From contig JASKLF010000001.1 in the NCBI GenBank assembly GCA_030153785.1, positions 54,353-118,352 on the forward strand: a stretch of DNA of 64,000 bases, in the 5' to 3' direction. The translations under genes were made by a program, and so were the position numbers. Each line of letters begins with the position of its first letter. The first letter of the stretch is position 1. A model generated the notes under the pieces. The model worked only from the letters and a program-made list of their open reading frames with translations. It ran no database searches and was not told the DNA's origin. Below are positions 7,689 to 28,146 of the stretch, one piece after another. This DNA comes from a bacterium (lineage in GTDB: Bacteria > Synergistota > GBS-1).

Positions 7689-8703
7689 TCTTTTTGCCCT
7701 CCTTGTATTCCCTAAGCCTCTCGATCAGTAAAGGAACTATTTCAAAGAGATCCCCCACGATGCCCAAATCACACACCTTAAATATATTAGCTTCCGGATC
7801 ACTGTTTATGGCAACAATCGTCTCAGAAGAAGACATGCCCGCAAGGTGTTGAACAGCACCAGAAATGCCTATTGCAAAATAAAGCTTAGGAGCAACGGTT
7901 TTCCCACTTAAACCAACCTGGTGAGGATAGGATATCCATCCCATATCAACAGCCGACCTTGAAGCCCCAACTGCCCCACCTAATAGCTGAGCAAGCTCAT
8001 GAATTAGTCTGAAGTTCCTTTCCCCCTTTAACCCCTTTCCCCCAGCTACCACAATATCGGCTTCTTGAAGAGGTGTTTGCGAGGTCTCATCTTTTACAAA
8101 ATCTAAGATCTTGAACTTAGAAAGGTAAAATTCCTCGGGGTATTCTTTTACAATCACCTCTCCTTTACGGGATGTATCCTTGGATAGAGGTTTCCTCGAC
8201 CTCGGCCTAACGGTTGCCATCTGAGGTTTATGTTTAGGAGTTTTTATTGTGGCCATTACATTTCCACCTATCGCAGGTCTCGTTTGAAGAAGAAGACCTG
8301 TCTCGGGCTCTATATCGAGGCCAGTACAATCAGCGGTAAGCCCGGTCCCTATCCTCGTAGCAAGTATGGGCATAATAGTTCTACCCATCGTAGTAGCGGA
8401 GGCTATAAATATCTCCGGACTAAACTCCTTAACCAAAGCCTCAAGAATTCTGGAATATACATCCGGCTTAAAGTGGACCAAAGAAGGGTGATCAACCACG
8501 TAAACCTTATCCGCTCCCCTATATATGAGCTCCTTCACTTTCTCCTTAAGGCCATAACCTATTATCACGCTCGAGAGCTCAACATTGAGCTTGTCTGCAA
8601 GTTCCCTCCCCCAACTTAAAAGTTCATAAGAAACCGAGCTTATCTCACCGTCTCTCTGTTCTCCAAGCGTCCAAACACCCTTGAAAACCTCTTTCCCAAT
8701 CAC
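7681..8703 (-). CDS. etfA: Electron transfer flavoprotein, alpha subunit
   Basis: 340 aa with the EtfA N-terminal domain and C-terminal FAD-binding signature. Directly downstream of etfB. Confidence 0.85.
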   Translation of the reverse strand: MIGKEVFKGVWTLGEQRDGEISSVSYELLSWGRELADKLNVELSSVIIGYGLKEKVKELIYRGADKVYVVDHPSLVHFKPDVYSRILEALVKEFSPEIFIASATTMGRTIMPILATRIGTGLTADCTGLDIEPETGLLLQTRPAIGGNVMATIKTPKHKPQMATVRPRSRKPLSKDTSRKGEVIVKEYPEEFYLSKFKILDFVKDETSQTPLQEADIVVAGGKGLKGERNFRLIHELAQLLGGAVGASRSAVDMGWISYPHQVGLSGKTVAPKLYFAIGISGAVQHLAGMSSSETIVAINSDPEANIFKVCDLGIVGDLFEIVPLLIERLREYKEGKKNG

Positions 8704-8715
8704 AGTGCATCACCC

Positions 8716-9510
8716 CTATAATATCCCTTTGCTTTCAAGAAAACTTATAAGCTCGTCAACTGCTTCCTCAGGATTCTTCCCAGAAATTATCTTCCCGTTC
8801 CTCGATAGCTTAGGATAAAAGATCTTTACAACCCTCGTGGGAGAACCTTCAAGCCCTACAAAACTTCTATTTAAGTTTAGGTCATCAACAGTTAACACAG
8901 GAATTTGCATCTCTTTAGCTCGAAGCTTACCAGCAAGGTTAGGCAATCTTGGCTCATTTATCTCCTTAACAACGCTTAAGAGAACGGGTAATTCTGTTTC
9001 AACTACTTCGTATCCACCTTCCACAGCTCGCCTTACCCTTATATACCTTTCCTCAAGACGTTCTATCTTGCTAACATAAGTTAAAGCGGGAATATTAAGC
9101 CAAGAAGCAACGCTTGGTCCAACCTGACCTGTCTCTCCATCGGTAGCCCTTTCACCACAAAATATGAGGTCGAATCCCCCAAGATATCTAATAGCTCCCG
9201 AAAGGGCATATGCAGTTGCCCAAGTGTCAGAACCAGCGAGAAGCTTGTCAGAAAGGAGATATCCTTCATCGCATCCCATTGAAATAGCATCTTTAACCGC
9301 ATCAACCGCCATAAGTGGCCCCATCGAGATCACCGTTATCCTTGCATTACCACCCAATCTTTCCTTTACACGAACCGCCTCCTCGACAGCATACATATCC
9401 AGCGGGTTTAACTCTGCCTCCATCTCGGTTCTTATCATTGTTCCGGTCTTTTCATCCATCTTTACCTTATCTGTAGCCGGAACCTGCTTAACCAAAACGC
9501 ATATCCTCAC
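8716..9510 (-). CDS. etfB: Electron transfer flavoprotein, beta subunit
   Basis: 264 aa whose N-terminus MRICVLVKQVP...NPLDMYAVEEA is the canonical EtfB start. It overlaps the gntR stop by 4 nt. Confidence 0.85.
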   Translation of the reverse strand: MRICVLVKQVPATDKVKMDEKTGTMIRTEMEAELNPLDMYAVEEAVRVKERLGGNARITVISMGPLMAVDAVKDAISMGCDEGYLLSDKLLAGSDTWATAYALSGAIRYLGGFDLIFCGERATDGETGQVGPSVASWLNIPALTYVSKIERLEERYIRVRRAVEGGYEVVETELPVLLSVVKEINEPRLPNLAGKLRAKEMQIPVLTVDDLNLNRSFVGLEGSPTRVVKIFYPKLSRNGKIISGKNPEEAVDELISFLESKGIL

Positions 9511-10238
9511 AGCTCCTCCCTCCCCATCTCAGAAATTCTCCAAAGAACACCTTCCACATGCAACCTCATCAATTCCTCCACCTCTTTAGCTTTCCTCTGG
9601 ATAATAAGCTCCAGTATTTTCTCATGATCCTCAAGAGACTTTTCCATCACTCCCGTAATATAAAGAGACCTGAGTCTGTATGTGTTGATGTAAGATACAA
9701 TGCTTTCCAACATCCTGGAAAGTCTCTCATTACCCGATGAAAACCATATGAAGCGATGAAACTCGGCATCAAGCTCCGAATAAGCAATTACATCCCTTTC
9801 TTCCGCAACCTTCTTCATTCTCTCAAGTTTTCTCTTGAGATTCTCTATCTCCTCTGCTCCACATCTTTTAGCAAAAAGTTTAACTGCAAGTCCTTCTAAA
9901 ACGCTCCTTATCTGAAAAACGTTCTCTATATCCTTTAAAGAAAATTTCGTCACAAAAGCTCCTTGATTAGGAATAAGCTCAACTAATCCTTCAACAGCAA
10001 GACGACGTATAGCCTCCCTCACAGGAGTCCTACTTGTGCCTAACTGAGAAGCAAGCTGGGTTTCAACCAGTCTACTACCACCCTCTAACTCCCCTTTAAG
10101 AATTGCCTCTTTAATAACCCTATAAACTTTCTGATTTAAAGGCTCATCTCTTTCAACTTTCCCTAACGAAATTCCCTCATCACCTCCTGTATACTGTATA
10201 CAGTATACCATAAGGGGAGCAAAATAAAAAGCTTTCAA
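9507..10238 (-). CDS. GntR/FadR-family transcriptional regulator, LldR/LctA-like
   Basis: Winged-HTH (LASQLGTSRTPVREAIRRLAVEGLV) followed by an FCD-type C-terminal domain. The ORF-track start is a TTG overlapping the upstream stop. The first in-frame ATG, at about 10211, is the more plausible start and gives about 234 aa. Confidence 0.8.
   Translation of the reverse strand: MKAFYFAPLMVYCIQYTGGDEGISLGKVERDEPLNQKVYRVIKEAILKGELEGGSRLVETQLASQLGTSRTPVREAIRRLAVEGLVELIPNQGAFVTKFSLKDIENVFQIRSVLEGLAVKLFAKRCGAEEIENLKRKLERMKKVAEERDVIAYSELDAEFHRFIWFSSGNERLSRMLESIVSYINTYRLRSLYITGVMEKSLEDHEKILELIIQRKAKEVEELMRLHVEGVLWRISEMGREEL
10189..10208. promoter_or_regulatory. Perfect 20-nt palindrome GTATAC-T-GTATAC-A-GTATAC. 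Candidate GntR-family operator, likely autoregulatory for the lct cluster.
   Basis: Three GTATAC hexamers spaced by single nucleotides form a perfect inverted repeat lying across codons 2-8 of the gntR ORF. FadR-subfamily operators are palindromes with GT..AC cores. An AGGAGGTG Shine-Dalgarno-like motif follows immediately. Confidence 0.6.
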
Positions 10239-14757: not shown

Positions 14758-15903
14758 TTAAGCTTTTGACCAAAACTCTTTTTTCCAATCAGGATTTATT
14801 ATCCTTATAATTCCAACCGTAACAAGAGGGATAAAGTAAATGGCGAAGAAAACCCAAGCCAATATCCCATATCCCTTCGCCACAAGAGCTATTATTCCAT
14901 AGCGAGCAAAAAGTATAGAAATTATGGCTATTACAGTAGCAATTATTCCCTCCTGAGTTCTGGATAATCCAACCCCCTTTATCTCCTTAAGCTGAACCTC
15001 AACCCTTCTTACTATTGCATGAATCATGCCTGTTCCGGTTTCTATCAATGTCCAAAACACGGCAAGAACATAAAATCCTCGAAGCCAAAGCCCACCTATG
15101 GTTTTCATTATTTCATACCATGGAACCGGAGCATTAACAATCTCAGGTCTCGTGTAAAATCCAAGGAGGCATAACCACGTCAAAAAGAAAGCCATACTTA
15201 CGAGCAAAGAGGAAGTTAACCCCGCCATGAGGGAATCGCTTCTCCTTTCAAGTCTGTCAATGGTAAATAAAACAGCAGGTAAGGCAGGCATATTATAAGC
15301 GAAATACTTAATTCCAGCTATAGAAGCATCCCAAGGAGTCTCCGCGCTAAGCCCTTTCTCAAAAGCCATTCCGATGTCTCCCCAAGCATACTTAAGCGTA
15401 ATACCCCACAAAATAGCATACATAGCATAAAGAATAACAGTACCGATAACCTCAAACCATTCTATAGCAAACCTTCCGTAAAAATGAAGAATTCCTATAG
15501 CTCCTATGACCACCACCGCACTAAGCATATACGGGAGTTTAAGCATGTCTTTCATTATATTTGCAGCCGCAGAACCAACCACAGCTATAACTATGATTGC
15601 CAAAACAATAAATGCTATATCAAATACAGGCCAAAACTTCCATAGAAGACCTTTCACCCAGGTTCTGTAATCGAAAGTTTTATTTATCCTCGCAAGCTCA
15701 TAGGAAAGAAAGGCAGCAATGAAAAAACCAAGCGTTATAAAGACGATTGAGTATACACCATTAACCCCAAACCTACCCCCGAATTCCATTACCTCTCTTC
15801 CTGTCGTAAATCCCCCGCCCATATAAATAGACTGAAAGACTATGGCAGGAAGAAACCAACGGAAAAAAATACCATACTTTCCTTTGCTCTCCACTTTACT
15901 CAC
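14758..15903 (-). CDS. YkvI-family polytopic membrane transporter (amino acid / amine permease-like)
   Basis: 381 aa and about 11 TM segments. The N-terminal [13 protein letters not shown] motif is characteristic of the YkvI family. First gene of a 3-gene operon with two aminotransferases. Confidence 0.6.
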
Positions 15904-15921
15904 CTCTCCTCTTAAAATTCT

Positions 15922-15948
15922 GGGGAGAGAAAGCCTCTTTCTCTCCCC
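15922..15948 (-). terminator. Hairpin GGGGAGAGAAAG-cct-CTTTCTCTCCCC, likely terminator downstream of ilvD
   Basis: 12-bp perfect stem in the 57-bp gap between the ilvD stop and the start of the next operon. Confidence 0.55.
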
Positions 15949-15960
15949 GGATCAAATTCT

Positions 15961-17631
15961 TTATTCGCCAAGCAATATTGCACCCTTATTAGCCGAGGTA
16001 ACAAGCTTAGCATATCTGGCTAAATAGCCACTTTTGAACTTTGAGGGTGGTGGAGACCACTGAGCGAGTCTTCTTTTTATCTCCTCATCTGGCACGCGAA
16101 GGGTTAACTTCCTGTTAGGAATATCTATCTCTATCTCATCACCCTCTTCAACTATGGCTATAGGACCACCTCTTTGGGCTTCAGGAGAAACGTGCCCTAT
16201 AACGGCACCTCTACTTGCTCCGGAAAACCTACCATCGGTAATCAAAGCTACACTTCCATCAAGTCCCATGCCTGCAATTGCAGAAGTAGGACCGAGCATT
16301 TCTCTCATACCGGGACCACCTGCCGGCCCTTCGTACCTTATAACAACTACATCTCCCTCCCTAATCTTGCCACCATATATGGCCTCTATGGCCTCCTCCT
16401 CCGAGTTAAAAACTCTCGCCTTACCAACATGATAAAGCATTTCCTTCTTAACCGCAGACTCTTTAACGACAGCACCATCGGGAGCAAGGTTCCCCCAAAG
16501 AATAGCAAGCCCACCCCTTGGACTATAGGGGTCTTCAACGCTTCTTATCACATTTCTATCAAGAATTTCAACATCCTTAATAAGCTCCCCCATGGTCACC
16601 CCCATTACAGTCATGGCATCCAAGTGGAGAAGGCCGAGCCTTGAAAGCTCTTTCAAAACAGCAGGAATTCCTCCTGCCCTATTTAAGTCCTCTATGTGCT
16701 GCTTGCTGGCGGGGGACAATTTACATATGGTGGGAGTTTTTCGCGAAAGTTCATCAAATTTCGTTAACGGAAGCTCCACCCCAGCTTCATTAGCAATGGC
16801 AGTAAGGTGTAAAACTGAATTAGTAGAACCACCAAGGGCGAGATCCAAAACAATGGCATTCTCAAAGGCCTTTTCGGTCATTATATCTCTTGCCTTTATA
16901 CCCTGTTTCACCATTTCCACTACCCTAACCCCGGCTTTAAAAGCTATTCTCTTCCTTATACCATCAAAGCCAGCTGGAACCGTGCCATTGCCAGGAACCG
17001 CCATTCCTAAACCTTCGGACAAACAATTCATGGTATTTGCAGTGAACATCCCCGCACAGGAGCCACAACCGGGACAAGCAATCATTTCCAAGCCTTCAAG
17101 CTCCTTCTCTGTAATCTCCCCTTTTTTCTGCTTTCCAACCCATTCAAAAACGGTAGAGAGGTCAACACTCTCTCCTTTGTAAATAGAGGAAAACATTGGT
17201 CCTCCACTAACTATCACAGCAGGGATATTAAGGCGAGCAGCAGCCATAAGCATGCCCGGAATTATCTTGTCGCAATTAGTAATAAGTACAAGCCCATCAA
17301 ACTGATGAGCGTTAGTCATAAGCTCTATAGAATCGGCAATTACCTCTCTTGATGGGAGAGAACACCTCATTCCTTCGTGCCCCATCGCTATTCCATCGCA
17401 TATTCCTATTACGGGAAACTCTACTGGTGTCCCCCCAGCATGCATAACTCCTCTTTTTGCAGCATAGGCAATGAAGTCAAGGTGAACATGTCCAGGAATT
17501 ATTTCATTGGCAGCGTTAACAATACCTATTATGGGCTTTTTAAGCTCTTCCGGGGAATAACCTGCAGCATAAAAGAGAGATCTATGGGGAGCCCTTTCAG
17601 CTCCTTCTATAACCTTTCTGCTTCTTAACAT
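15961..17631 (-). CDS. ilvD: Dihydroxy-acid dehydratase
   Basis: 556 aa with a canonical IlvD/EDD N-terminus and Cys ligand region (CDGIAMGH). GGGGAGGTG RBS. Confidence 0.95.
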
Positions 17632-17663
17632 AAAAACACCTCCCCTTTAACATTAACAGAATA

Positions 17664-17688
17664 GCGGGGTGACTTTAAGTCACCCCGC
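17664..17688 (-). terminator. Hairpin GCGGGGTGAC-tttaa-GTCACCCCGC, terminator of the TRAP operon
   Basis: 10-bp GC-rich stem followed on the minus strand by a T-rich tract. It sits between the dctP stop and the ilvD start. Confidence 0.6.
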
Positions 17689-17731
17689 TAATAGCTTTTC
17701 CATAAATTATGCAAGACTCACAAGCCCAAGA

Positions 17732-18775
17732 TTAAGGCCTCTGCCAGGTCGACCTAAACTTCTCTCTAAAGCCATTGTAAGATTCCAAAACTTTGGCGGT
17801 AAACGGATCTTTCTTAGCCTGTTCGGCATAGTATTTATCGGCCTCAGCTATAAATGCGTCCTCTATCTCCTTGGGTAGCTGAAGCACCTGGACTCCCGCT
17901 TTACGGAACTTGTCCAGCGCCTCCAAGTCAGCCTTAATCGCCTTCGCATAGTATATGAAAGCCTCTTCTGTCCAAGCAGACTCTATGATCCTCTGCAAGT
18001 CTTTTGGAATTTGCTCCCACTTTTTCTTGTTAAAGAAGAACGGATTCCACTCATATGGATGTCTTACCGGAGAAAGATAAATATACTTTCCAGCTTCTTG
18101 AAGCCCCATCGTCCAGTTAACTGCAGGGCTTGCTGCCTCATAGGCGTCGATAACACCACGGTGCATAGCCTCAAAGACCTCACCCACTGGCATTAGAGTA
18201 CAAGCAGCTCCAAGTCTATCAAGAATTGCAGCACCGTCTCCTGCAGAACGAATTCTCATTCCCTTAAGGTCTGCCACGCTCTTAAGAGGTTTATTGGTCA
18301 CGAGGAAGATCTCCGGTGGAGCTAACTGACCAGCGCCCCTCAATATCTGAACGTTATAATCCTTTAACATCTCAACTATGAGCTCGTGACCTCCCCCTTC
18401 GAGAACCCAAAGCAATGCCTCAGAGGGAGACATCCCCGCAGGCTTCGCGGTAAATATGGGAGCTGCAGGCCATCTATCCCTGTAGTACATGTAACAGGTA
18501 TCAGCAAAGTCCAAAACCCCTCTGTGAACGCCATCAAGCTCCTTTGTCGCTGGGGATATTGCCCCTGCAGGATAAATTTTAAATACCAACCTCCCACCAC
18601 TTGCAGCTTCCGCATTTTTACAAGCCCTTACAAGCGATTCATAAAAAACATTGCCCGATGGCATACGAGACTGCCCTGTAAAGGTGTAAACCTTCTCCTG
18701 CGCATAGACCAAGCCTGTAGCAACAAGAAGCACCAACATACAAGCAAACACCATCAACCAGCCCTTTCTCCGCAT
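17732..18775 (-). CDS. dctP: TRAP transporter solute-binding subunit (DctP family)
   Basis: 347 aa with a signal peptide. Downstream of the dctQ and dctM permease genes. Confidence 0.8.
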   Translation of the reverse strand: MRRKGWLMVFACMLVLLVATGLVYAQEKVYTFTGQSRMPSGNVFYESLVRACKNAEAASGGRLVFKIYPAGAISPATKELDGVHRGVLDFADTCYMYYRDRWPAAPIFTAKPAGMSPSEALLWVLEGGGHELIVEMLKDYNVQILRGAGQLAPPEIFLVTNKPLKSVADLKGMRIRSAGDGAAILDRLGAACTLMPVGEVFEAMHRGVIDAYEAASPAVNWTMGLQEAGKYIYLSPVRHPYEWNPFFFNKKKWEQIPKDLQRIIESAWTEEAFIYYAKAIKADLEALDKFRKAGVQVLQLPKEIEDAFIAEADKYYAEQAKKDPFTAKVLESYNGFREKFRSTWQRP

Positions 18776-18812
18776 AATACACTACCTCCTTTCATTTTTT
18801 ATAATTTACCTT

Positions 18813-20147
18813 TTAAAACATCTTGCTTGGCAACCACAGAATTATCTGGGGAAATGCTATACATAAAGCTAAGCCAACCATTATCAAGATTATAAACGGG
18901 ATAACTCCCCGAATTATGTGACCTGTCTCTATGCCCAGCTCTGGTGGTGCCGTGCCTTTTAAGAAAAATATGGCATAAGCGAAGGGAGGAGTTAAAAAGG
19001 ACATCTGAAGGTTAATACAAACCATCATCGCAAACCAAATGGGGTCAAAACCTAACTTCGTAGCGATAGGAGTCACTATAGGGACAAGAAGAAGAACTAT
19101 GCCCAGCCAGTCTATAAACATCCCAAGAAAGAAAAGTATAGCCATTATTACAATAAAAGCCCCCCACTTCCCACCAGGAGATTTCATTATCACATTAGCC
19201 ACAACTTCACCACATCCAGCTCTCAGAAAAACACCCACGAAAGCAGAAGCCATAGCCAATATGAGGAAGACCATCCCGCTTAAACGCACAGTATCAATAG
19301 CCACGCTTTTCAAAACTTCCCAGCTAAATCTACGATAGACTATCGCTAAGATGGTGGCAGCGAATGCTCCAACAGCTGCCGCCTCCGTCGGAGCCGCTAT
19401 ACCAAAAAATATGCTACCAAGAACAGCTAAAATCAAAATGAGCGGAGGAAGCAAGGAAACGGAAAGCATCTTCATTTTCGTTGAAAAAGATATACCCGCT
19501 ATTTCCTCGGGAGGAACGGCCGGTCCCGCCTTCTTGTTTATCAAACAATAAATTAATATGTAAGCGCAATAAAGCAAAGATAAGAGGAAACCGGGGAAGA
19601 AAGCACCGAAAAAGAGCTTTCCTACGGAAACCCCAGCTGCAGGCCCATAGACTACGAGCATGATGCTTGGCGGAATCAGGATTCCCAAAGTTCCTGCGGC
19701 ACAAACGGTTCCACTCGCCAAAGCCTTATCATATCCCCTTTTAACCATGGGGCCAAGAGCAAGCAAAGCCAAAGCTGTAACAGAAGCAGCTATAACGCCC
19801 ACACAAGCAGCTAAAATAGTTCCCATCAACACGGTAGCTATGGCAAGTCCTCCGCGCAATCTGCCAAGCAAGATGTAAAGGGTCTCGAAGAGCTTCTCTG
19901 TTATCCCAGAACGCTCAAGCATGTTGCCCATAAACACAAAAAGAGGAACAGCAAGTAAGGTATAGTTGGTAATCTGAGCAAAAATGCGGCTATAATATAG
20001 CTCCATTGTACTTGGAAGACCGAAAACCAAGGTGCCGATAGCGAATCCCATAGTCCCTATTCCCAACGCAAAGGGAAAGCCTGTTAAAACCGAGAGAAAA
20101 ACCCCCGAAAACATTAAAACGGTAACAATTTCAGGCGTAAGATTCAT
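18813..20147 (-). CDS. dctM: TRAP transporter large permease (DctM)
   Basis: 444-aa polytopic membrane protein of the DctM family. Confidence 0.85.
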   Translation of the reverse strand: MNLTPEIVTVLMFSGVFLSVLTGFPFALGIGTMGFAIGTLVFGLPSTMELYYSRIFAQITNYTLLAVPLFVFMGNMLERSGITEKLFETLYILLGRLRGGLAIATVLMGTILAACVGVIAASVTALALLALGPMVKRGYDKALASGTVCAAGTLGILIPPSIMLVVYGPAAGVSVGKLFFGAFFPGFLLSLLYCAYILIYCLINKKAGPAVPPEEIAGISFSTKMKMLSVSLLPPLILILAVLGSIFFGIAAPTEAAAVGAFAATILAIVYRRFSWEVLKSVAIDTVRLSGMVFLILAMASAFVGVFLRAGCGEVVANVIMKSPGGKWGAFIVIMAILFFLGMFIDWLGIVLLLVPIVTPIATKLGFDPIWFAMMVCINLQMSFLTPPFAYAIFFLKGTAPPELGIETGHIIRGVIPFIILIMVGLALCIAFPQIILWLPSKMF

Positions 20148-20662
20148 AGGCGATCACCCTTTATCACATAGTAGACATTCCGAATAAAAAAGTTTACTCC
20201 TTGCAATAAAAACAGCAAGAAACCTATAAAAACGATGGTTCTTAAAGGATAGAGGGGAGGATAAACATAGGTTGTAGCAGAAGTCTCTTTAATAGAGATA
20301 GAAAAAAGCATCCACGAATAAGAAACACGAGTCATCGCCCCTATCAGAGGAAATAAAAATAAAAGAGCCCCAATTGCATCTATAAGAGCTCTACCGCGAG
20401 GAGAAAAACGACTATAAATAATGTCAACCCGCGTGTGAGCGTTATGAAGCAGAACATATCCCCACGAAAGAACATACATCGCTGCTCCTGTCATAACTAT
20501 AAGTTCATACTCCCATGCCGTCGACTGATGAAGCAGATACCTTCGAACAACTCCCACAACCCCAATTAACACCATTGCAACCGCTAACCATCTTGTCCAC
20601 ACACCCACCCGTTCATTCACAAGGTCAATTAGATTTAAAAGCTTAACCACAGAAAAAGCCAC
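20144..20662 (-). CDS. dctQ: TRAP transporter small permease (DctQ)
   Basis: 172 aa with 4 TM segments. Overlaps the dctM start by 4 nt. Confidence 0.8.
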   Translation of the reverse strand: MAFSVVKLLNLIDLVNERVGVWTRWLAVAMVLIGVVGVVRRYLLHQSTAWEYELIVMTGAAMYVLSWGYVLLHNAHTRVDIIYSRFSPRGRALIDAIGALLFLFPLIGAMTRVSYSWMLFSISIKETSATTYVYPPLYPLRTIVFIGFLLFLLQGVNFFIRNVYYVIKGDRL

Positions 20663-20780
20663 CCCCTCTTTCTAAAAGCCTGGCATACTTCGCTAATAAT
20701 AAAAGCCTTTCCACTTTTCATTATACACTTACAGAAAACATATAGTCAAGGTAAAACAAGCTTTGATGTAAAATCTTTTT

Positions 20781-20789
20781 TGCTATAAT
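20781..20789 (+). promoter_or_regulatory. Extended -10 promoter element (TGcTATAAT) for the KaiC-like gene
   Basis: TGnTATAAT lies about 22 nt upstream of the TTG start and GGGGAGGG RBS. A weak TTGATG -35 is present at a 15-nt spacing. A divergent TGTATAAT for dctQ is at about 20726-20735. Confidence 0.5.
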
Positions 20790-20811
20790 ATTAAATGGGG
20801 AGGGAATCGAA

Positions 20812-21669
20812 TTGAGAGAAAGCAAAGCCGTGGAAAAAGCAATATCCTTAATATCAGAACTTAAAGAAAAGGCACCAAAGTTATTTGGCATATCGACGGG
20901 GGTAGAAGGGCTGGACGATCTGTTCTTCACCGTAGAATTGAAAGACGGAAAAGCAATTAAAAAGCCCCTTGGAGGATATCCTTTTAGAGCAGTCATTAAC
21001 CTAACTGGAATGCCGGATACGGGAAAATCCTTGATGGCAGAACAATTCGCCGTAAAACAAGCGTCGTTAGGATATCCTTCCTGCTTTGTAACGGTTGAAA
21101 CCCCTGCTCCCTTTTTAATTCAGGGAATAAAAATGAGAGCTAACGCGATGGGAATAAAATGGGAGGAGATAGAAGAAAAAATTGTGGTCATAGATGCAGC
21201 TACATATGAAATATTGAGAGAAGATCTTCCAAGCCTTCTTAAGACAATTGAAAAAGCCATAGAAGACTATGAAGTTAAGTCAGTGATAATAGACTCCATA
21301 ACAGGACTTTATGAAGCAAGAGAGATGTTAGCTAGAACCATCGTAAGGGAAGTTTTCAACTTCCTTAAAACGCATGGGCAAACTGGACTGCTAATAAGCC
21401 AAAAGAGAAGTAGCCATGAAGCTGAATCAGCAGAGGCAGCAGGAGGCTATGCAGTAAGCCACATATGTGATGTCAACATGGTGACAGCGAAGAAGGTTAT
21501 CCAAACCCAAAGAGATGAAAAAATATTTAAGAAGCCGGTAGGAACCCTCGTTAGAACCTTTAGGATAGATGGTTCAAGGATGTGTGGTCACGATACAGAC
21601 ACGCACATCCTCGAAATAACGGAATTGGGTTTGGTTAAGATAGGTCCCAAGATTATGGAAATAGAATGA
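20812..21669 (+). CDS. KaiC/RadA-like RecA-superfamily ATPase (COG0467-type), single domain
   Basis: Walker A GMPDTGKS; the ISTGVEGLDDL motif typical of KaiC/RadA N-termini with a 13-aa insertion; Walker B-like VIIDSI. Confidence 0.75.
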   Translation: MRESKAVEKAISLISELKEKAPKLFGISTGVEGLDDLFFTVELKDGKAIKKPLGGYPFRAVINLTGMPDTGKSLMAEQFAVKQASLGYPSCFVTVETPAPFLIQGIKMRANAMGIKWEEIEEKIVVIDAATYEILREDLPSLLKTIEKAIEDYEVKSVIIDSITGLYEAREMLARTIVREVFNFLKTHGQTGLLISQKRSSHEAESAEAAGGYAVSHICDVNMVTAKKVIQTQRDEKIFKKPVGTLVRTFRIDGSRMCGHDTDTHILEITELGLVKIGPKIMEIE

Positions 21670-21685
21670 AAGGAGGGGGACCAAC

Positions 21686-22045
21686 GTGGTAGAGGTTATC
21701 AAACCCCACGAGGAAAATTATGATGAACTTGCCTTACTAACCTTTGCCAACGTTATAAAAGAGCTCGGCGGACCTAAGAAAATGATCCAGTATAGACAGT
21801 TAACGTGGCTTCCCAGTCTAATGGAGGCGTGTTATGTAATTGTCCTGCACGAGAAAGGGAAAAAGACGGCCGACGAGATTGCCTCTGCCTTAGGAATAAC
21901 AAAGGAAACAGTCAAAAGAATATTAGCCTCCGATCCAGAAGCGGTCAAGAAGAAAATCGAAGGGGAAGAAAAAGAAATAAGCGCCCATGTTGCAGGCGGG
22001 TTAGCAAAGCTCGCATGGGAAAACTTAAAAACTCAACGCCTGTAA
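21686..22045 (+). CDS. Small hypothetical protein with a predicted HTH, partner of the KaiC-like ATPase
   Basis: 119 aa, GTG start with a GGAGGGGG RBS 16 nt after the upstream stop. TADEIASALGITKETVKRIL resembles a helix-turn-helix. The 3' end overlaps the trkH stop. Confidence 0.5.
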   Translation: MVEVIKPHEENYDELALLTFANVIKELGGPKKMIQYRQLTWLPSLMEACYVIVLHEKGKKTADEIASALGITKETVKRILASDPEAVKKKIEGEEKEISAHVAGGLAKLAWENLKTQRL

Positions 22046-23475
22046 GTCTCGGGCAGAAGTATTAGCAGAATGGCATAAAGCTCCAACCTTCCAGCCACCA
22101 TACAAAAGCTCAGTACCCATTTTGCAAGAGGATTAAAGAATGCATAGTTTTCCACAGGTCCCACCCTTCCCAAACCGGGTCCTATACCTCCCAAAGTAGC
22201 TGCAACAGAAGCAATAGAGGTAATTATATCATATCCCATAGCAGATATTATAAGAGAAGCGAAAACGAAAATAATCATATAAATCATAAAGAAGTGCAAA
22301 ACTGAGCTAAGCAAAGAAGGATGAAGAGGCTTACCATTAAGTTTAATGGAAATAACTGCCTCAGGATGAACCAACCTATAAAGCTCTCTTTTCAAGGCTT
22401 TTATTAAAATGAGTATCCTGACATGTTTTATCGCACCACCAGTAGAGCCTGCACAACCCCCGATGAACATGAGAATGAGTAAAAAGTATTGGGCAAAAGG
22501 AGGCCACAAAGAGTAGTCGGTAGTAACATACCCCGTAGTCGTCAGTATAGAAACCACTTGAAATGAAGCATATCTAAGAGAGCTACCAAAGGATGGATAC
22601 GTACCTGCAAAAAATAGACACAGACTCACAAGGACAACCCCCATCATTACAAAAAAGGTGTAGAACTTAAACTCTTCATCCTTAAAGAAAGTCTTAACAT
22701 CCCCCTTTAAAGCACGGTAATGAAGAGCAAAATTTGCACCTGCTATAAACATGAAAACGATTATAACTATTTCGAAATAAAGATTATTATATTGCCCTAT
22801 ACTCTTGTTTAAAGGGGAAAAACCTCCAGTAGCAACCGTTCCAAAGGTATGACATAACGCCTCATACAAGCTCATGCCTCCTAAATAAAGCAAAATAGCC
22901 TCTACCGCCGAAACTATAAAGTAAACCTGCCATAATATTTTTGCCGTTTCTCTAATTCTGGGTTTGATCTTTTCAGCAACTACTCCGGGGACTTCCGCCT
23001 TAAAAAGGTGCATACCGCCAACCCCAAGAGCAGGAAGAATGGCTAAAGAAAGAACTATTATTCCCATACCCCCAAGCCAGTGGGTAAAATCGCGCCAAAA
23101 AAGTATCCCCTTTGGGAGAGACTCTATGTCCCTGAGAATACTCGCCCCCGTAGCTGTAAAACCTGACATAGCCTCAAAAAAGCAATCCACATAACTTTCA
23201 AAAAAACCGCTGAAGTAATAAGGAAGAGCTCCCAAAGCAGCACTACCTAACCAACCAAAAGCAACAACTCCAAATCCCTCTTTAGGAGTAAACTCTTCCC
23301 CCTTTTCCCCAATAAGGACAAAAAACTTACCTATGCCTATAGAAAACAGGATTGCTTTAATAAAAGGAAAAACACTTTCACCAAAATAATAAGCCCAGAA
23401 TAAAGAAGGGAACATTGATAATCCCAGAAAGAAGAAAAGCCAACCAATGGGATATGATATTACCCTAAAACGCAA
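22033..23475 (-). CDS. trkH: Trk/Ktr-type potassium uptake membrane subunit
   Basis: 480-aa polytopic protein of the TrkH/KtrB family. Immediately follows trkA. Confidence 0.85.
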   Translation of the reverse strand: MRFRVISYPIGWLFFFLGLSMFPSLFWAYYFGESVFPFIKAILFSIGIGKFFVLIGEKGEEFTPKEGFGVVAFGWLGSAALGALPYYFSGFFESYVDCFFEAMSGFTATGASILRDIESLPKGILFWRDFTHWLGGMGIIVLSLAILPALGVGGMHLFKAEVPGVVAEKIKPRIRETAKILWQVYFIVSAVEAILLYLGGMSLYEALCHTFGTVATGGFSPLNKSIGQYNNLYFEIVIIVFMFIAGANFALHYRALKGDVKTFFKDEEFKFYTFFVMMGVVLVSLCLFFAGTYPSFGSSLRYASFQVVSILTTTGYVTTDYSLWPPFAQYFLLILMFIGGCAGSTGGAIKHVRILILIKALKRELYRLVHPEAVISIKLNGKPLHPSLLSSVLHFFMIYMIIFVFASLIISAMGYDIITSIASVAATLGGIGPGLGRVGPVENYAFFNPLAKWVLSFCMVAGRLELYAILLILLPETYRR

Positions 23476-24834
23476 TTAGCCTCCCCCTTCAGCCGAAAAC
23501 CATTTAGGAATTTCCTTCAACATTTCTCCCATTAAGAAGACTATTGCCTCATCCCCTTCTTTAAGCTGTGTATCACCCCTAGGAATTATCACTTCCCCAT
23601 TTCTAACGATTGCGCCTACAAGAAAACCTTTGGGGAGTAGGAGGTCTCGCAACCTCCCTTCTGTAATCTTAGAACCTTTAGCAACCATAACATCAACTAC
23701 CCTTGCATTCGCTTCTTCTAATAGAGCTATTGACAGGATATCTTCTCGCCAGACGTGTTTAAGTATGGTACTTGCTGTTGCAAGTCTCGGATTAACCACG
23801 GCATCTACTTTTTCAAGGTAGTCTACAAGTTTGACATAATCGGATTTTTTAACCAATGCTATGCCTTTCTTGGCCCCCTGGCTCTTAGCAAGGAAAACCG
23901 AAAGTAGGTTCACCTCATCGTTCTGTGTTAGAGAGACAAAACCATCCACATCCGAAACTCCCTCTTTTTTAAGCAAAGCTAAGTCAGTTCCATCTCCTTG
24001 AATAACCAAGCTTGAAGAAAGTGAATCGGCAAGGACTCCACACCTTTCAGGACTTTTGCTTATTATCTTAATATTCGAAAAGCCAGCACCCTCAAGCATC
24101 TTAGCAAGCCAATAGGTAGTTTCTCCTCCACCCACAAGCATTATCTTTTTGGGCCTTCTCCATTCAGCTCCAAGGTATATAGAAAGTCTGTATAAGTCTT
24201 CCTTTTTACCCACAACAAACAGTTTATCACCTGCCTCGATTTTATCCTGGCCATAGGGCACAAAAGCAGCACTTCCACGAAGAATGCCCACGACCAAAAA
24301 GATACCGTCTATCTCTTTGGAAAGTTCCAGCAAACTTTTACCAACAGCAGGAGCATCGTTGGGAACTCTCAAGAGATAAACCATAACTTTTCCACCAGCG
24401 AATTCAATTACTCGAGAAGCAGGGGGAACTTGAAGGAGGTGAAATATTTCGGAAGCCACAACTCTTGTAGGATTTATAATCAAATCTATCCCTATTTTAC
24501 GAGCAACCATACCTGTAGGCTCATCGTACCCCAGGGTTTGAACCCGTGCCACAACCTTTTTAACCCCAAGATGCTTAGCTATAAGGCAAGCCACTATATT
24601 AGTTTCATCACTATCTGTAACAGCTATTAGCATGTCAGCATCATTAATCCCAGATTCCTCAAGAGCAGAAAGCTGAGAGCCACTTCCGTGAACAACCATA
24701 ACATCTAATCTATCCTGAATTTCGGATATCCTTCTCTCATCCTTTTCTATCACAACTACATCATGGCCCTCTCCGGCAAGCACTTTAGCAATATTAAAAC
24801 CTACCTCACCAGCTCCCACTACTATAACCTTCAT
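23476..24834 (-). CDS. trkA: Trk system K+ uptake regulatory protein (tandem RCK_N/RCK_C)
   Basis: 452 aa with two Rossmann GxGxxG segments (VVGAGEVG, LVGGGETT) each followed by an RCK_C. Overlaps the glmM stop. Confidence 0.85.
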   Translation of the reverse strand: MKVIVVGAGEVGFNIAKVLAGEGHDVVVIEKDERRISEIQDRLDVMVVHGSGSQLSALEESGINDADMLIAVTDSDETNIVACLIAKHLGVKKVVARVQTLGYDEPTGMVARKIGIDLIINPTRVVASEIFHLLQVPPASRVIEFAGGKVMVYLLRVPNDAPAVGKSLLELSKEIDGIFLVVGILRGSAAFVPYGQDKIEAGDKLFVVGKKEDLYRLSIYLGAEWRRPKKIMLVGGGETTYWLAKMLEGAGFSNIKIISKSPERCGVLADSLSSSLVIQGDGTDLALLKKEGVSDVDGFVSLTQNDEVNLLSVFLAKSQGAKKGIALVKKSDYVKLVDYLEKVDAVVNPRLATASTILKHVWREDILSIALLEEANARVVDVMVAKGSKITEGRLRDLLLPKGFLVGAIVRNGEVIIPRGDTQLKEGDEAIVFLMGEMLKEIPKWFSAEGGG

Positions 24835-26144
24835 TCAGATGCCTCCTCATCTATAGAAGAAATAAGTTGGACCAATCTTAAGCCTATTTTATCCACAAGC
24901 ATAGGGTCTTTCCCCTCTACCATAACCCTAAATATTGGTTCCGTACCAGAAGGTCTGACAATTATTCTAAGTGTTTTTTGCCAGCTTTCCGATATTTTTT
25001 CAACCTCCTCCCTCAGTACAGCTGAAGAAGCAACCTTATTTTTATCTTTGACCTTGATATTCCAAACCCTTTGAGGATAACGGGGGAAACTATCTATATA
25101 GTATTCAACGCTCTCTCCAAAGCTCAATACTTTCAAAGCTGTAACCAAGCCATCACCCGTACATACTTCAGGCCTAAAAATTATATGGCCAGAAGGCTCA
25201 CCTCCTAACGGAAGCTCCCTCTTTTTTAACTCTTCATAGACCCATTTATCCCCTACAGGAACCCTTACGAAACCTATTTTCAGGGAAGACAAAACTTCCT
25301 CTAAACCAAGATTACTCATCACCGTGCCCACTACCGCCTTGGGCTTTAGTTTAGAAGCAGCCAAGTAAAGTATAACATCTCCATCAGCTATCATTCCTCG
25401 AGAATCGGAAACAACCACCCTGTCACCATCTCCGTCAAAAGCAAATCCTATGTAAGCTTCTTCCCTAACTACGGCGGAAACCATTTCTCCTGGAGATGTA
25501 GAACCTACACCAGCATTTATATTTATTCCGTCAGGGTCACAACCCACCTTTATAACTTCAGCGCCAAGACTCTCAAAAACCAAAGGAGCTATTTCAAAAA
25601 GAGCACCATTAGCACCGTCAACAACTACTTTTAAGCCATCAAGTTTTACACCCTGCGCAATTTTCAGAAGAAAAGGTAGGTAATATTCCTTTGGATCGAG
25701 CTTATATAGCTTGCCAATATATATTCCCGTTGGCAAGTCCCTATATTCATCAATTTTGCCCTCTATAACCGCTTCTTCCTCAGAAGAAAGCTTTTCTCCA
25801 AATCTGTTAAAAAATTTTACACCGTTATACTCATAAGGGTTATGGGAAGCAGAAACAACCGCCCCTCCATCCGCCTTAAGCTCTCTGACCAACAGAGATA
25901 TCCCTGGGGTAGATAACACACCTACATCAACCACATCACACCCAGAAGAAAGTATACCAGCTATAAGCGCAGAAACTAAGCTGTAACCACTTAAACGCGT
26001 ATCCCTTCCCACAACAACCAAGGGTCTCTCCTTTTCCTCTTTTAACCAAAAACCATAAGCTCTTCCAACCTTTAAAACAACCTCTGGCCTCATGTTTCCA
26101 GAATTGGCTACATCTCTTACTCCATCAGTTCCAAAAAGGCTCAT
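24831..26144 (-). CDS. glmM: Phosphoglucosamine mutase
   Basis: FGTDGVRD N-terminus and the SASHNPYEYNG active-site phosphoserine motif. Confidence 0.9.
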   Translation of the reverse strand: MSLFGTDGVRDVANSGNMRPEVVLKVGRAYGFWLKEEKERPLVVVGRDTRLSGYSLVSALIAGILSSGCDVVDVGVLSTPGISLLVRELKADGGAVVSASHNPYEYNGVKFFNRFGEKLSSEEEAVIEGKIDEYRDLPTGIYIGKLYKLDPKEYYLPFLLKIAQGVKLDGLKVVVDGANGALFEIAPLVFESLGAEVIKVGCDPDGININAGVGSTSPGEMVSAVVREEAYIGFAFDGDGDRVVVSDSRGMIADGDVILYLAASKLKPKAVVGTVMSNLGLEEVLSSLKIGFVRVPVGDKWVYEELKKRELPLGGEPSGHIIFRPEVCTGDGLVTALKVLSFGESVEYYIDSFPRYPQRVWNIKVKDKNKVASSAVLREEVEKISESWQKTLRIIVRPSGTEPIFRVMVEGKDPMLVDKIGLRLVQLISSIDEEASE

Positions 26145-26156
26145 GTCTTATCCCCC

Positions 26157-27356
26157 TCACTTAGCTGTATAAACCTTTACCATACTAGGAGTAACAGAAA
26201 CTATCTCCAAACCGGGAGGAACTGAAACAGATACAGGAAGAATTGCTTCTTTCGTCTCCACCCCAGAAACATCTATGAAAACCCCAATATCTTGGATATT
26301 AAGGGAAGTTATCTTCGTATAAGGCCCCTTTAATCGAAGCTTGATTTGCTTTGGAGAAATATTCCACTTCAAAAACACGCTACTTCCACGAATAGTAACA
26401 GGAACAAGGAATTCTCTTTCAAGAACCTTTTCTTTAAGTTCCACTATAACTTTCACGTTAGAATTATCGACCAGTCTCACTCCTTCAGGAGGTTCAATTG
26501 AAAGTTCAAGAATGCTGGTTCGATCAAGCTCTGAAACATCAACTGGAGAAGTAACTATCTCATTTATTTTCTCTAATACAGACGAAGGCCCCATTATGGT
26601 AACATGAGAAGGAACCGCTTCAACGGAAATAAGATCAAAAGCTTCCTTGGGCTTTCCTTTTATATCAACCTTGACTTTAACGATCTTCGTAGGCCACCCA
26701 GGCTTTAAAGCGAGGGAAACTCTAACTCGCGAAGGAATTATGGTTATCTCGGGAAAAGATGTTTCCGAAATACCTTCCGCCCTTAGTTCCAAAGCAACAT
26801 TTACATCTTTATCAACACCTGCAACATTCAAAGTGGCAAAAACATAAGGGATTTTCTCAACCAAATCCTTGGGCCCTCTAACAACCGCCTTGTTCGGTAC
26901 TATTCTTATCTCGTCTATTAAAAAGCCTTCACTAGGGTTCCCCACAGTTAAAACTCTGACAGGAACTTCTTTATCCACAAGCTCTTCTATAGATATCGCC
27001 AAGAAAGAAGGTCTAACAGCTAAAACGTTAACTCCAGGCGGAACTAAAGTCTGAACCTTAAGTCTATAAACCCCCGGGTTTAACCCTTGAAGGTCTACGA
27101 ATGCTTCAACATCCTTAGATGTCAAACTACCTACCACGTTTTTACTACCTTTCAACCTCACCTCTACACTACTTTCATTATACTCAACCATAACCCTTTC
27201 GGGGGCGTTTTTCACTTTCACAGGGACTTCGATTATTCTTTCAACCACCTGAGGGCCTTCAAGCCAAACAGTATAGTACCAAAACACAATGGAAATCAAT
27301 AAAGACACAATCGCTAAGAAGAGCTTGCTTTCGAGTATTTTCCATATGACCCTCAC
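26157..27356 (-). CDS. cdaR: YbbR-domain protein, CdaA regulator
   Basis: 399 aa with an N-terminal TM then YbbR-like repeats. Conserved position between cdaA and glmM. Confidence 0.75.
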   Translation of the reverse strand: MRVIWKILESKLFLAIVSLLISIVFWYYTVWLEGPQVVERIIEVPVKVKNAPERVMVEYNESSVEVRLKGSKNVVGSLTSKDVEAFVDLQGLNPGVYRLKVQTLVPPGVNVLAVRPSFLAISIEELVDKEVPVRVLTVGNPSEGFLIDEIRIVPNKAVVRGPKDLVEKIPYVFATLNVAGVDKDVNVALELRAEGISETSFPEITIIPSRVRVSLALKPGWPTKIVKVKVDIKGKPKEAFDLISVEAVPSHVTIMGPSSVLEKINEIVTSPVDVSELDRTSILELSIEPPEGVRLVDNSNVKVIVELKEKVLEREFLVPVTIRGSSVFLKWNISPKQIKLRLKGPYTKITSLNIQDIGVFIDVSGVETKEAILPVSVSVPPGLEIVSVTPSMVKVYTAK

Positions 27357-27357
27357 T

Positions 27358-28146
27358 CTATTCCCCCCTCATCCAGCTTAACAATTTATTCATGAGACCG
27401 TTTTTCTGCCTGACGAAATAATACCTTTCTAAAACCCTTCTTAGCGCTTCTTCATTAAGGTCTCTCACTAATCTTCCGTTAACGGCAAAAGAAACTTCCC
27501 CTCTTTCCTCTGATACAACAATAACCCAAGCATCGGTTACCTCACTCAATCCAACAGCAGCCCTGTGTCTCGTCCCTAAACGTCTATCCATATCTCTATC
27601 GGAAAGCGGGAAAAAGCAACTTGCAGCCAAAATTTTATCCTCCTTGATGATAACGCCACCATCATGAAGCGGACTTTTAGGGTTAAATATCGACAAAATA
27701 AGTTCGGCAGAAACCTCGGCATTTAGCTTAACGCCCTTCTCTTGGAAATCCTTTAAACTACTTTTTCTTTCAAGAGCAATTATAGCACCGGTTTTAGTCT
27801 CTTTAAGAGAAGTTATCGCAACAAAGAGCTCGCTTACAATCTGTGCCCCCTTTTTGGAAGAAAGGACACCTCTTTCCCAGAAACCACCCCCCAATTCCTC
27901 AAGGCCTCTTCTAAGCTCTGGCTGAAAAACAATAGGAATGACAATGAAAGACAGATTTATAACTCTTTCAAGGAAATAACTTATAGCCTGAAGCCCTAAA
28001 AATTTGGCTAAACCATTTAGTAACAAAATTAAAAGCAATCCCTTCACAAGCTGAAAGGCCCTCGTCCCTCTAAGAAATAACAAAACCCTGTAGATAACGT
28101 AAGATATTATCAATATATCTGCAATATCTTGCCACCTAAGAATCAT
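27358..28146 (-). CDS. cdaA: Diadenylate cyclase (c-di-AMP synthase)
   Basis: N-terminal TM helices plus a DAC domain carrying the DGA and RHRAA motifs (HDGGVII, GTRHRAA). Confidence 0.9.
   Translation of the reverse strand: MILRWQDIADILIISYVIYRVLLFLRGTRAFQLVKGLLLILLLNGLAKFLGLQAISYFLERVINLSFIVIPIVFQPELRRGLEELGGGFWERGVLSSKKGAQIVSELFVAITSLKETKTGAIIALERKSSLKDFQEKGVKLNAEVSAELILSIFNPKSPLHDGGVIIKEDKILAASCFFPLSDRDMDRRLGTRHRAAVGLSEVTDAWVIVVSEERGEVSFAVNGRLVRDLNEEALRRVLERYYFVRQKNGLMNKLLSWMRGE

Follow-up and report, generated by a model that had tools for sequence, protein, structure and literature searches.

A conserved two-gene locus of a Synergistota bacterium encodes a TIGR03878 KaiC-family ATPase and a small TIGR03879 partner, a putative regulatory module

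Makarova et al. (2017), as cited in PMC5847659, proposed that KaiC-like ATPases serve archaea as hubs of signal transduction, and one single-domain member, ArlH (FlaH), autophosphorylates and forms a hexamer whose phosphorylation state gates partner binding (bioRxiv 10.1101/2021.03.19.436134). In Pyrococcus furiosus, the gene pair PF1931/PF1932 was reported to be strongly induced by heat shock and to carry a Phr operator motif (PMC10746257). Here we analyze a pair made up of a KaiC-family ATPase gene and the gene of a small helix-turn-helix (HTH) partner, found in a 64,000-nucleotide stretch of DNA from a Synergistota bacterium (contig JASKLF010000001.1, positions 54,353 to 118,352 of the forward strand), which is called the window below and whose own numbering we use. 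The two families to which the proteins belong, TIGR03878 (thermo_KaiC_2) and TIGR03879 (near_KaiC_dom, probable regulatory domain), are defined by sequence and neighborhood only and have no function attached to them. TIGRFAMs describes TIGR03878 as a thermophile-only family and TIGR03879 as a domain common to two protein families, each encoded beside its own KaiC-like partner, and our results agree with both descriptions.

Open reading frame (ORF) calling and the sequence itself place the pair on the plus strand as a two-gene operon with a 16-nt gap, between the minus-strand TRAP and cdaA-trk operons, just as an initial annotation made from the sequence alone had described it. The genes are as follows:

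20812-21669, plus strand: KaiC-family ATPase gene, 285 aa, TTG start
21686-22045, plus strand: partner gene, 119 aa, GTG start, encoding a small all-helical HTH protein, the short form of TIGR03879

The ATPase matches TIGR03878 with 398.2 bits against a cutoff of 232.2 (residues 24-281 on model positions 1-258 of 259) and Pfam KaiC PF06745 at 1e-51, while the partner carries TIGR03879 with 109 bits against a cutoff of 65.1 (residues 27-116 on model positions 3-90 of 91). With both scores above the curated cutoffs, the pair is a single-domain KaiC-family ATPase of TIGR03878 with a small dedicated HTH partner of TIGR03879, in line with what the initial annotation had proposed in more general terms, and both proteins are new members of already curated, functionally uncharacterized families. 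The same annotation had called such proteins functionally undescribed, which is right for their biochemical function but not for the pair as an entity, since NCBIfam has models for both members; the pairing itself is already curated knowledge because TIGR03879 is named for its position beside KaiC homologs. The window pair shows no substantive difference from the two families: its order, ATPase then partner, is that of most genomes, and the hairpin, Walker motifs, and partner motifs described below are family-wide. The window partner is the short form of about 120 aa, whereas many archaeal, WOR-3, and Thermotogota members are about 200 aa long and have a C-terminal extension. No second copy of either family was found in the 64-kb window.

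Homologs of the ATPase reach E 1e-167, and the protein is 55-65% identical across Bacteria and Archaea. An AlphaFold2 (AF2) model of the ATPase (pLDDT 90.8, pTM 0.89) has the KaiC/RecA fold, and its best Foldseek matches were PH0284 (2dr3) and the CI domain of KaiC (4tlc) at E ~1e-16, with target-normalized TM-scores of 0.82-0.86 and identities of 21-24%. Conservation was judged over an alignment of 78 homologs, and the principal features of the protein are as follows:

20923-20967, plus strand: family-specific insertion FFTVELKDGKAIKKP, residues 38-52, between the G-L-D-D-L and G-G-Y-P motifs, a beta-hairpin in the model
21007-21030, plus strand: Walker A motif (P-loop) GMPDTGKS, residues 66-73, with G66, T70, G71, and K72 invariant
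21097-21099, plus strand: catalytic-type Glu E96 (VTVE-T-P), invariant, aligned with the first Glu of the EE pair of PH0284 and KaiC
21283-21297, plus strand: Walker B strand VIIDS, residues 158-162, with D161 and S162 invariant
21409-21450, plus strand: L2-like loop SHEAESAEAAGGYA, residues 200-213, conserved, with pLDDT <50 in the AF2 model

The catalytic core is intact, as K72, D161, and E96 are invariant among the 78 aligned homologs, and a catalytic role is documented for the aligned Glu in KaiC and ArlH (bioRxiv 10.1101/2021.03.19.436134). The second position of the EE pair is occupied by Thr or Ser in the TIGR03878 family and by Thr in the window ATPase. The loop at residues 200-213, which is the equivalent of the RecA L2 or KaiC pore-side loop, is 5 residues longer than in PH0284, and its E208-A-A-G-G212 segment is invariant in the alignment despite the modeled disorder. 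As far as the model goes, such a combination of partial invariance and disorder is typical of a functional loop.

The initial annotation had singled out a 13-aa insertion ahead of the Walker A motif as a feature of this gene. The insertion is real, but the segment, FTVELKDGKAIKKP, counts 14 residues; it interrupts the G-L-D-x-L ... G-G-x-P motif and corresponds to a 15-column gap in the comparison with the PH0284/PF1931 family. We found it in 78/78 aligned homologs with KKPLGG conserved, and AF2 modeled it as a confident beta-hairpin (strands 38-44 and 47-52, block pLDDT 93-98). Because it is present in all of these homologs and lies within the TIGR03878 model without an indel, it is a hallmark of the family and no peculiarity of the window gene. 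Together with an N-terminal helix, this hairpin is found in the window ATPase and all aligned homologs and is absent from the TIGR03877 family.

Comparison with better-known members of the superfamily set the ATPase apart from each of them. Cyanobacterial KaiC shares with it the RecA-type KaiC fold, the Walker A and B motifs, the catalytic Glu, and a C-terminal R-x-x-x-G-x-x-H, whereas the window ATPase has one domain instead of two, 21-24% identity, no CII phosphorylation sites, and no KaiA or KaiB at hand; neither KaiB nor KaiA occurs among the flanking genes (DctPQM, TrkH/A, GlmM, CdaR, CdaA, and a TPR protein) or among the recurrent neighbors, these flanks being the range covered. Circadian KaiC (TIGR02655/PRK09302) was ruled out for this single-domain protein of 285 aa, which scored 38 bits against 546 and 45 against 408. 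ArlH is single-domain and KaiC-like, as is the window ATPase, and identity with ArlH/FlaH was ruled out by 32.7 bits against a cutoff of 215, a bacterial host, and no archaellum genes nearby. The aRadC proteins represented by Sso2452 are likewise single-domain, hexamer-forming RecA-superfamily ATPases of thermophiles, but they are distant from the window ATPase (2w0m, E 1.9e-7) and their repair context is absent here; to our knowledge, aRadC has no described HTH partner. Bacterial RadA/Sms has only the RecA-like core in common with the window ATPase, and it was ruled out because TIGR00416 gave 18.3 bits against a cutoff of 403 and the 285 aa hold no zinc finger and no Lon-like C-terminal domain. 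The reservation in the initial annotation that the ATPase might simply be a RadA/Sms-type recombination paralog could thus be set aside. Archaeal RadA and RadB were ruled out as well (16.9-26 bits against cutoffs of 172-361).

The partner protein gave weak matches to Pfam HTH models over residues 49-82, namely HTH_7 (1.3e-5), Sigma70_r4 (1.5e-4), and TrmB, and the HTH helices were supported by AF2, so that structure prediction, which the initial annotation had named as a check, agreed with the assignment of both proteins. Three segments of the partner are of particular interest:

21800-21820, plus strand: motif LTWLPSL, residues 39-45, outside the HTH, with L42 at least 90% conserved and the rest invariant
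21869-21925, plus strand: HTH ADEIASALGITKETVKRIL, helices 62-69 and 73-80, from the Pfam matches and AF2 helices
21986-22015, plus strand: C-terminal motif HvAGGLAKLA, residues 101-110, with a variable second position; 5 of the other 9 positions are invariant and the rest at least 90% conserved

The highest conservation in the partner alignment thus lies outside the HTH, in LTWLPSL and HxAGGLAKLA, which is as expected for an interface with a highly conserved ATPase. These two motifs may mediate contact with another protein, the ATPase being the simplest choice, and we regard them as a candidate contact surface for it. The HTH-type sequence and the resemblance of the modeled fold suggest that the partner may bind DNA and may have regulatory activity. 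The partner family is small: an exhaustive hidden Markov model (HMM) search of 1.84 billion representative proteins returned 92 clusters at E<=1e-10, counted as 50%-identity clusters. A fusion of ATPase and partner was not found among the long matches of this representative search, which were tandem partner duplications or unrelated fusions. The near_KaiC_dom is tandemly duplicated within single polypeptides at locus L021 (6862-7590) and in proteins P0330-P0333, one of which carries a low-complexity linker of about 150 residues, and these duplications suggest that the working unit of the partner may be a dimer.

To see how often the two genes occur as a pair, one genome per species was scanned, which yielded 56 loci with ATPase relatives at 52-86% identity. 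Bacterial loci came from Aquificota, Thermodesulfobacteriota, Thermotogota, WOR-3/Hydrothermota, Chloroflexota, Bacteroidota, and Calditrichota, and archaeal loci from Thermoproteota, Nanoarchaeota, Nitrososphaeria, and Thermoplasmata. All 56 are from hydrothermal or hot-spring assemblies, and each named homolog is from a thermophile or a hydrothermal sample; the closest relatives of the window are the bacterium GBS-1 and hot-spring or hydrothermal metagenome-assembled genomes (MAGs). We ran the partner-family HMM on the six-frame ORFs of these loci, 48 of which had enough downstream sequence. The partner was on the same strand and downstream of the ATPase in 36/48, in both domains and many phyla; it lay within 150 nt, directly adjacent, in 29 loci and 0.3-1.4 kb downstream in 7. 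Five of these 7 have an intervening gene for an AIM24 or an SDH-protease: AIM24 (PF01987, ~224 aa) in L031 and L044, where the gap is ~700 nt as it is in L022, assigned to AIM24 by this spacing, and the SDH-protease in L038 and, by spacing, L052. The expectation that the pair would travel together was therefore borne out, and the linkage is strong but not obligatory. At L032, an AIM24-family gene follows the ATPase and the contig ends before a possible partner.

The locus is also stable in its chromosomal position. Over ~12.7 kb, from 14948 to 27640, the DNA is collinear with that of the bacterium GBS-1, with nucleotide identities of 72-76%. The order DctPQM-ATPase-partner-TrkH-TrkA recurs, down to the 16-nt gap and the overlap with trkH, in a third relative with an ATPase of 91% identity, and overall the locus is syntenic in three diverged relatives. 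The GC content of the pair is 0.423 compared with 0.427 for the window. Comparison with two relatives gave nonsynonymous (pN) values of 0.06-0.10 and synonymous (pS) values of 0.77-0.86 for both genes, indicating that both are under strong purifying selection; together with homologs reaching E 1e-167 for the ATPase and E 1e-69 for the partner, this places both ORFs well outside chance and shows the small one to be conserved. The possibility raised earlier that the pair lies in a variable region was contradicted by this collinearity and GC content, and the "island" is only a strand switch.

Some other genes recur beside the ATPase in particular lineages. Eight or nine WOR-3/Hydrothermota loci have the ATPase, the partner, a DUF505 gene (PF04458, ~575 aa), and a gene for an SDH-type ClpP-like serine protease (PF01972) on one strand (L009, L011, L013-L016, L041, and L042; positions ~7480-10100 in loci with full flanks, lower in L013), and DUF505 adjoins the pair in the Thermoproteota locus L004 (4063-5787). 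No homolog of DUF505, the SDH-protease, or AIM24 was found in the 64-kb window. In four unrelated lineages, a phosphohexomutase and/or NDP-sugar pyrophosphorylase gene that is co-directional with the ATPase gene stands beside it or at a distance of two small ORFs, at L003 (3288-5488), L008 (2284-4815), L010 (354-3295), L026 (222-1604), L030 (4579-5961), and L045 (7987-10524); the two enzyme domains are fused into one protein of ~845 aa in the WOR-3 loci L008 and L045. With the exception of L003, these sugar-enzyme loci have no HTH partner nearby.

The pair most informative about function is that of P. furiosus. The PH0284 sequence, taken from its PDB alignment, retrieved "UPF0273 protein PF1931" at 96% identity, and at the P. 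furiosus locus (L057, CP003685.1, 4001-5569) a 269-aa gene, PF1932, lies exactly 16 nt downstream of PF1931. PF1931 matches TIGR03877 with 475 bits, and the downstream protein matches TIGR03879 with 85.7 bits against the cutoff of 65.1 and then continues into a long coiled coil. Since a sister ATPase family, TIGR03877, is combined there with the same TIGR03879 partner domain, the PF1931/PF1932 operon is, judging from sequence, a paralogous version of the window module, related to it by paralogy only. The two share the two-gene layout, the 16-nt gap, the TIGR03879 partner domain, and the ATPase fold, with PH0284 as the top Foldseek match. Compared with PF1931/PH0284, the window ATPase has in addition an N-terminal helix of ~25 residues, the 15-column hairpin, the longer L2-like loop, and a 12-residue insertion near residue 230, and it lacks one 12-residue segment of PH0284 and the second catalytic Glu, which is replaced by Thr; the partner differs in length, with 269 aa and a long coiled coil in PF1932 compared with 119 aa in the window. 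Heat-shock induction is reported for the Pyrococcus pair only, and the new Phr-regulon genes reported beside PF1931/PF1932 include a proteasome-assembly chaperone (PMC10746257). As a separate observation, the PH0284/PF1931 family is 86-100% identical across Pyrococcus, Thermococcus, and Palaeococcus (P0210-P0329), and it reaches 92% identity in the bacterium Pseudothermotoga thermarum and 97% in an MAG labeled Thermotogae. On sequence grounds, such identity indicates a recent archaea-to-bacteria transfer or, for the Thermotogae-labeled MAG, contamination.

We interpret the window pair as a regulatory module composed of a KaiC-family signaling ATPase and a dedicated HTH partner, and we put the probability of this interpretation at roughly 0.5. 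The ATPase would form a RecA-type hexameric ring that binds ATP at the subunit interfaces through K72, D161, and E96, and it would hydrolyze ATP slowly and probably autophosphorylate like other single-domain KaiC-like proteins. Its nucleotide or phosphorylation state would control the binding or release of the partner, an all-helical and probably dimeric protein that would contact the ATPase through the near-invariant LTWLPSL and HxAGGLAKLA, and the HTH of the partner would then switch the transcription of target genes. We propose an ATP-driven ring gating an HTH output on the basis of the homology to the hexameric PH0284 and KaiC, the conserved catalytic residues, the precedent of ArlH, and the archaeal signaling-hub proposal. 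Temperature, or an energy or proteotoxic stress related to it, would be the likeliest input, given that thermophiles carry the family and heat shock induces the paralogous pair of P. furiosus. This specification as a heat-stress module is about half as probable as the regulatory module as such. The initial annotation had suggested a module of signaling or defense; signaling is the most plausible reading of the pair, but defense found no support from PADLOC, synteny, or GC content.

Several observations weigh against this interpretation or against its thermal part. The heat-shock data concern the paralogous TIGR03877 family, to which the window ATPase scores 66 bits against a cutoff of 307, and the heat-shock-induced partner PF1932 has a different C-terminus with its coiled coil. 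K-mer enrichment over 46 non-redundant regions upstream of ATPase genes, compared with shuffled controls, found no shared operator; no palindrome was conserved between the window and GBS-1; and no CIRCE (controlling inverted repeat of chaperone expression) element was present in the 64-kb window at up to 3 mismatches, so that the window bacterium offers no link between the pair and a heat-shock regulon. The 12/48 testable loci without a partner nearby indicate that the ATPase can work without an adjacent partner, and the window ATPase has Thr where KaiC has the second Glu of its EE pair. No experimental study of any TIGR03878 or TIGR03879 member was found in the searchable literature, and searches on COG1318, DUF505, AF_0795, and the TIGR03878/9 accessions retrieved nothing relevant.

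The strongest of the other explanations starts from the resemblance of the ATPase to Sso2452 (2w0m), in fold as well as in sequence (E 1.9e-7 with the single sequence and 2.6e-15 with a profile). The pair could be an accessory of DNA repair or recombination, in which an aRadC-type RadA paralog would bind single-stranded DNA via the L2-like loop and modulate recombination, with the HTH partner as its DNA-targeting subunit. Members of the aRadC group, which includes Sso2452, have DNA-stimulated ATPase activity, form hexamers, and affect DNA damage responses of Sulfolobus (PMC4080772), and the invariant flexible loop at residues 200-213 is placed as the L2 DNA-binding loop of RecA is. We nevertheless hold this to be unlikely, as repair and recombination genes are not recurrent near the pair in the 56 loci, the RadA, RadB, and Sms models score far under their cutoffs, the closest curated relatives are KaiC-type with a partner annotated as a regulatory domain, and the sister pair of P. 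furiosus responds to heat shock under Phr (PMC10746257). The neighbors in WOR-3/Hydrothermota suggest a different function, in protein quality control or proteolysis, where a RecA-type ring would have DUF505, AIM24, or the SDH-type ClpP-like protease as its working partner, with the HTH protein serving as an adaptor or regulator. The order of ATPase, partner, DUF505, and protease on one strand, the AIM24 gene, or in L038 the protease gene itself, placed between ATPase and partner in several loci, and the proteasome-assembly chaperone among the Phr-regulon genes with PF1931/PF1932 (PMC10746257) all point in this direction. These neighbors, however, are limited to one or two related lineages, which amounts to few independent events, and neither the 64-kb window nor most other phyla have them. 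We also know of no KaiC-family ring that acts as an unfoldase, which counts against such a role, and we consider it distinctly unlikely.

Gene neighborhoods also underlie the suggestion that the ATPase regulates sugar-phosphate or nucleotide-sugar metabolism, as in cell envelope or compatible-solute synthesis. Co-directional with the ATPase gene, and either its direct neighbor or separated from it by two small ORFs, a phosphohexomutase and/or nucleotidyltransferase gene is present in Nanoarchaeota (L003), Thermodesulfobacteriota (L010 and L012), Desulfurobacteriaceae (L026 and L030), and WOR-3 (L008 and L045), mostly at loci without the HTH partner, and glmM is three genes away in the window. 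Yet these are four or five lineages of roughly 25 and such genes are common, the window glmM belongs to a separate convergent operon (cdaA-cdaR-glmM-trkAH), and we are aware of no mechanistic precedent for KaiC-type control of sugar-phosphate metabolism, all of which makes this idea very unlikely. An anti-phage defense system or mobile accessory module on a strand-switched island is highly improbable. The initial annotation had argued, with no tool support, that an ATPase and a small partner on their own strand are a common defense layout, but PADLOC gave no match for the ATPase and only a non-significant match of the partner to a CARF model (E 0.0014), and neither protein has a nuclease or other effector domain. 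A mobile island would also fit poorly with a locus that is collinear in three diverged relatives, has a GC content at the window mean, and is not flanked by an integrase, notable repeats, or a tRNA, and both proteins are extremely conserved across domains, unlike fast-evolving defense genes. We give an equally small chance to a minimal KaiC-type timer or oscillator, which the homology of the ATPase to both the CI and CII domains of KaiC might suggest. The protein has a single domain, the circadian KaiC models, with cutoffs of 408-546 bits, give it 38-45 bits, no KaiB-like gene flanks the pair, and short KaiC homologs lack the CII phosphorylation sites that the oscillator requires (PMC5520375).

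The surroundings of the pair contain further signals for its expression and for that of its neighbors:

20720-20749, minus strand: divergent sigma-70-like promoter TTGACT-18-TATAAT (11/12), facing the TRAP dctQMP operon, from the consensus scan
20763-20789, plus strand: putative promoter of the pair, with a -35-like TTGATG at 20763-20768, a spacing of 15 nt, and an extended -10 TGcTATAAT at 20781-20789
20797-20804, plus strand: Shine-Dalgarno sequence of the ATPase gene, GGGGAGGG, 7 nt before the TTG, read from the sequence
21671-21676, plus strand: Shine-Dalgarno sequence of the partner gene, AGGAGG, within the 16-nt gap
22033-22045, both strands: convergent 3' overlap of the partner gene and trkH, 13 nt, from the ORF calls

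The 149-nt intergenic region 5' of the pair carries both divergent promoter candidates, and the only blocks in it that are conserved with GBS-1 are the two -10 boxes, the TRAP-facing -35, and the Shine-Dalgarno sequence. An extended -10 promoter of its own had been ascribed to the pair, and TGcTATAAT is indeed present, with TTGCTATAA conserved in GBS-1 although the remaining intergenic region diverges. The element was missing from the output of the consensus promoter scan because of the 15-nt spacing between TTGATG and the -10, and its function as a promoter is plausible only. Of the TRAP-facing promoter, both hexamers are largely kept in GBS-1. The GGAGGG of the ATPase Shine-Dalgarno sequence is kept there too, and the TTG start is supported by an ATG at the identical position in GBS-1 and in a second relative. 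A terminator scan found no terminator-like site in the gap between ATPase and partner genes, and with only 16 nt between them, cotranscription as a bicistronic operon is the natural reading. A direct repeat, TAAAAGCCT, at 20673-20681 and 20700-20708, 27 nt apart and between the divergent promoters, is unconserved in GBS-1 and probably due to chance.

Upstream, the pair is flanked by the minus-strand TRAP transporter operon of DctP, DctM, and DctQ, and downstream by TrkH, TrkA, GlmM, YbbR/CdaR, and CdaA on the minus strand; a TPR protein is also among the flanking genes. The overlap geometry of the partner gene and trkH is found as well in the relatives L060-L062, among them L060 (4221-4233) at only ~75% nucleotide identity, and no terminator-like site fits between the convergent pair and trkH operons. 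The genes cdaA (DAC domain), cdaR (YbbR), glmM, trkA, and trkH form one tightly packed string on the minus strand (22033-28146), by which a c-di-AMP synthase operon is directly joined to the Trk potassium-uptake system. c-di-AMP controls K+ transport, which fits this arrangement. No Rfam family reached its gathering score in the 64-kb window, with no tRNA, rRNA, or riboswitch matches.

Thermophilic archaea and bacteria are rich in single-domain KaiC-like ATPases, of which almost none has a known input or output. The pair described here belongs to a compact family that is extremely conserved in both domains and, going by its named members, confined to hot environments, and its instance in the window, no new kind of system, is a clean bacterial example with the short form of the partner in a stable position. 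A wider conjecture, which we think unlikely, is that TIGR03878/TIGR03879 and TIGR03877/TIGR03879 together make up a single KaiC-based switch for temperature or heat stress, restricted to thermophiles, in which the ATPase cycle of the ring would be the sensor and the HTH a portable output for bacterial and archaeal transcription, spread horizontally among hot-environment organisms of both domains. If this were true, the KaiC/HTH switch module would be a determinant of life at high temperature. Solving one member of the family would explain a recurrent thermophile-specific regulatory module.

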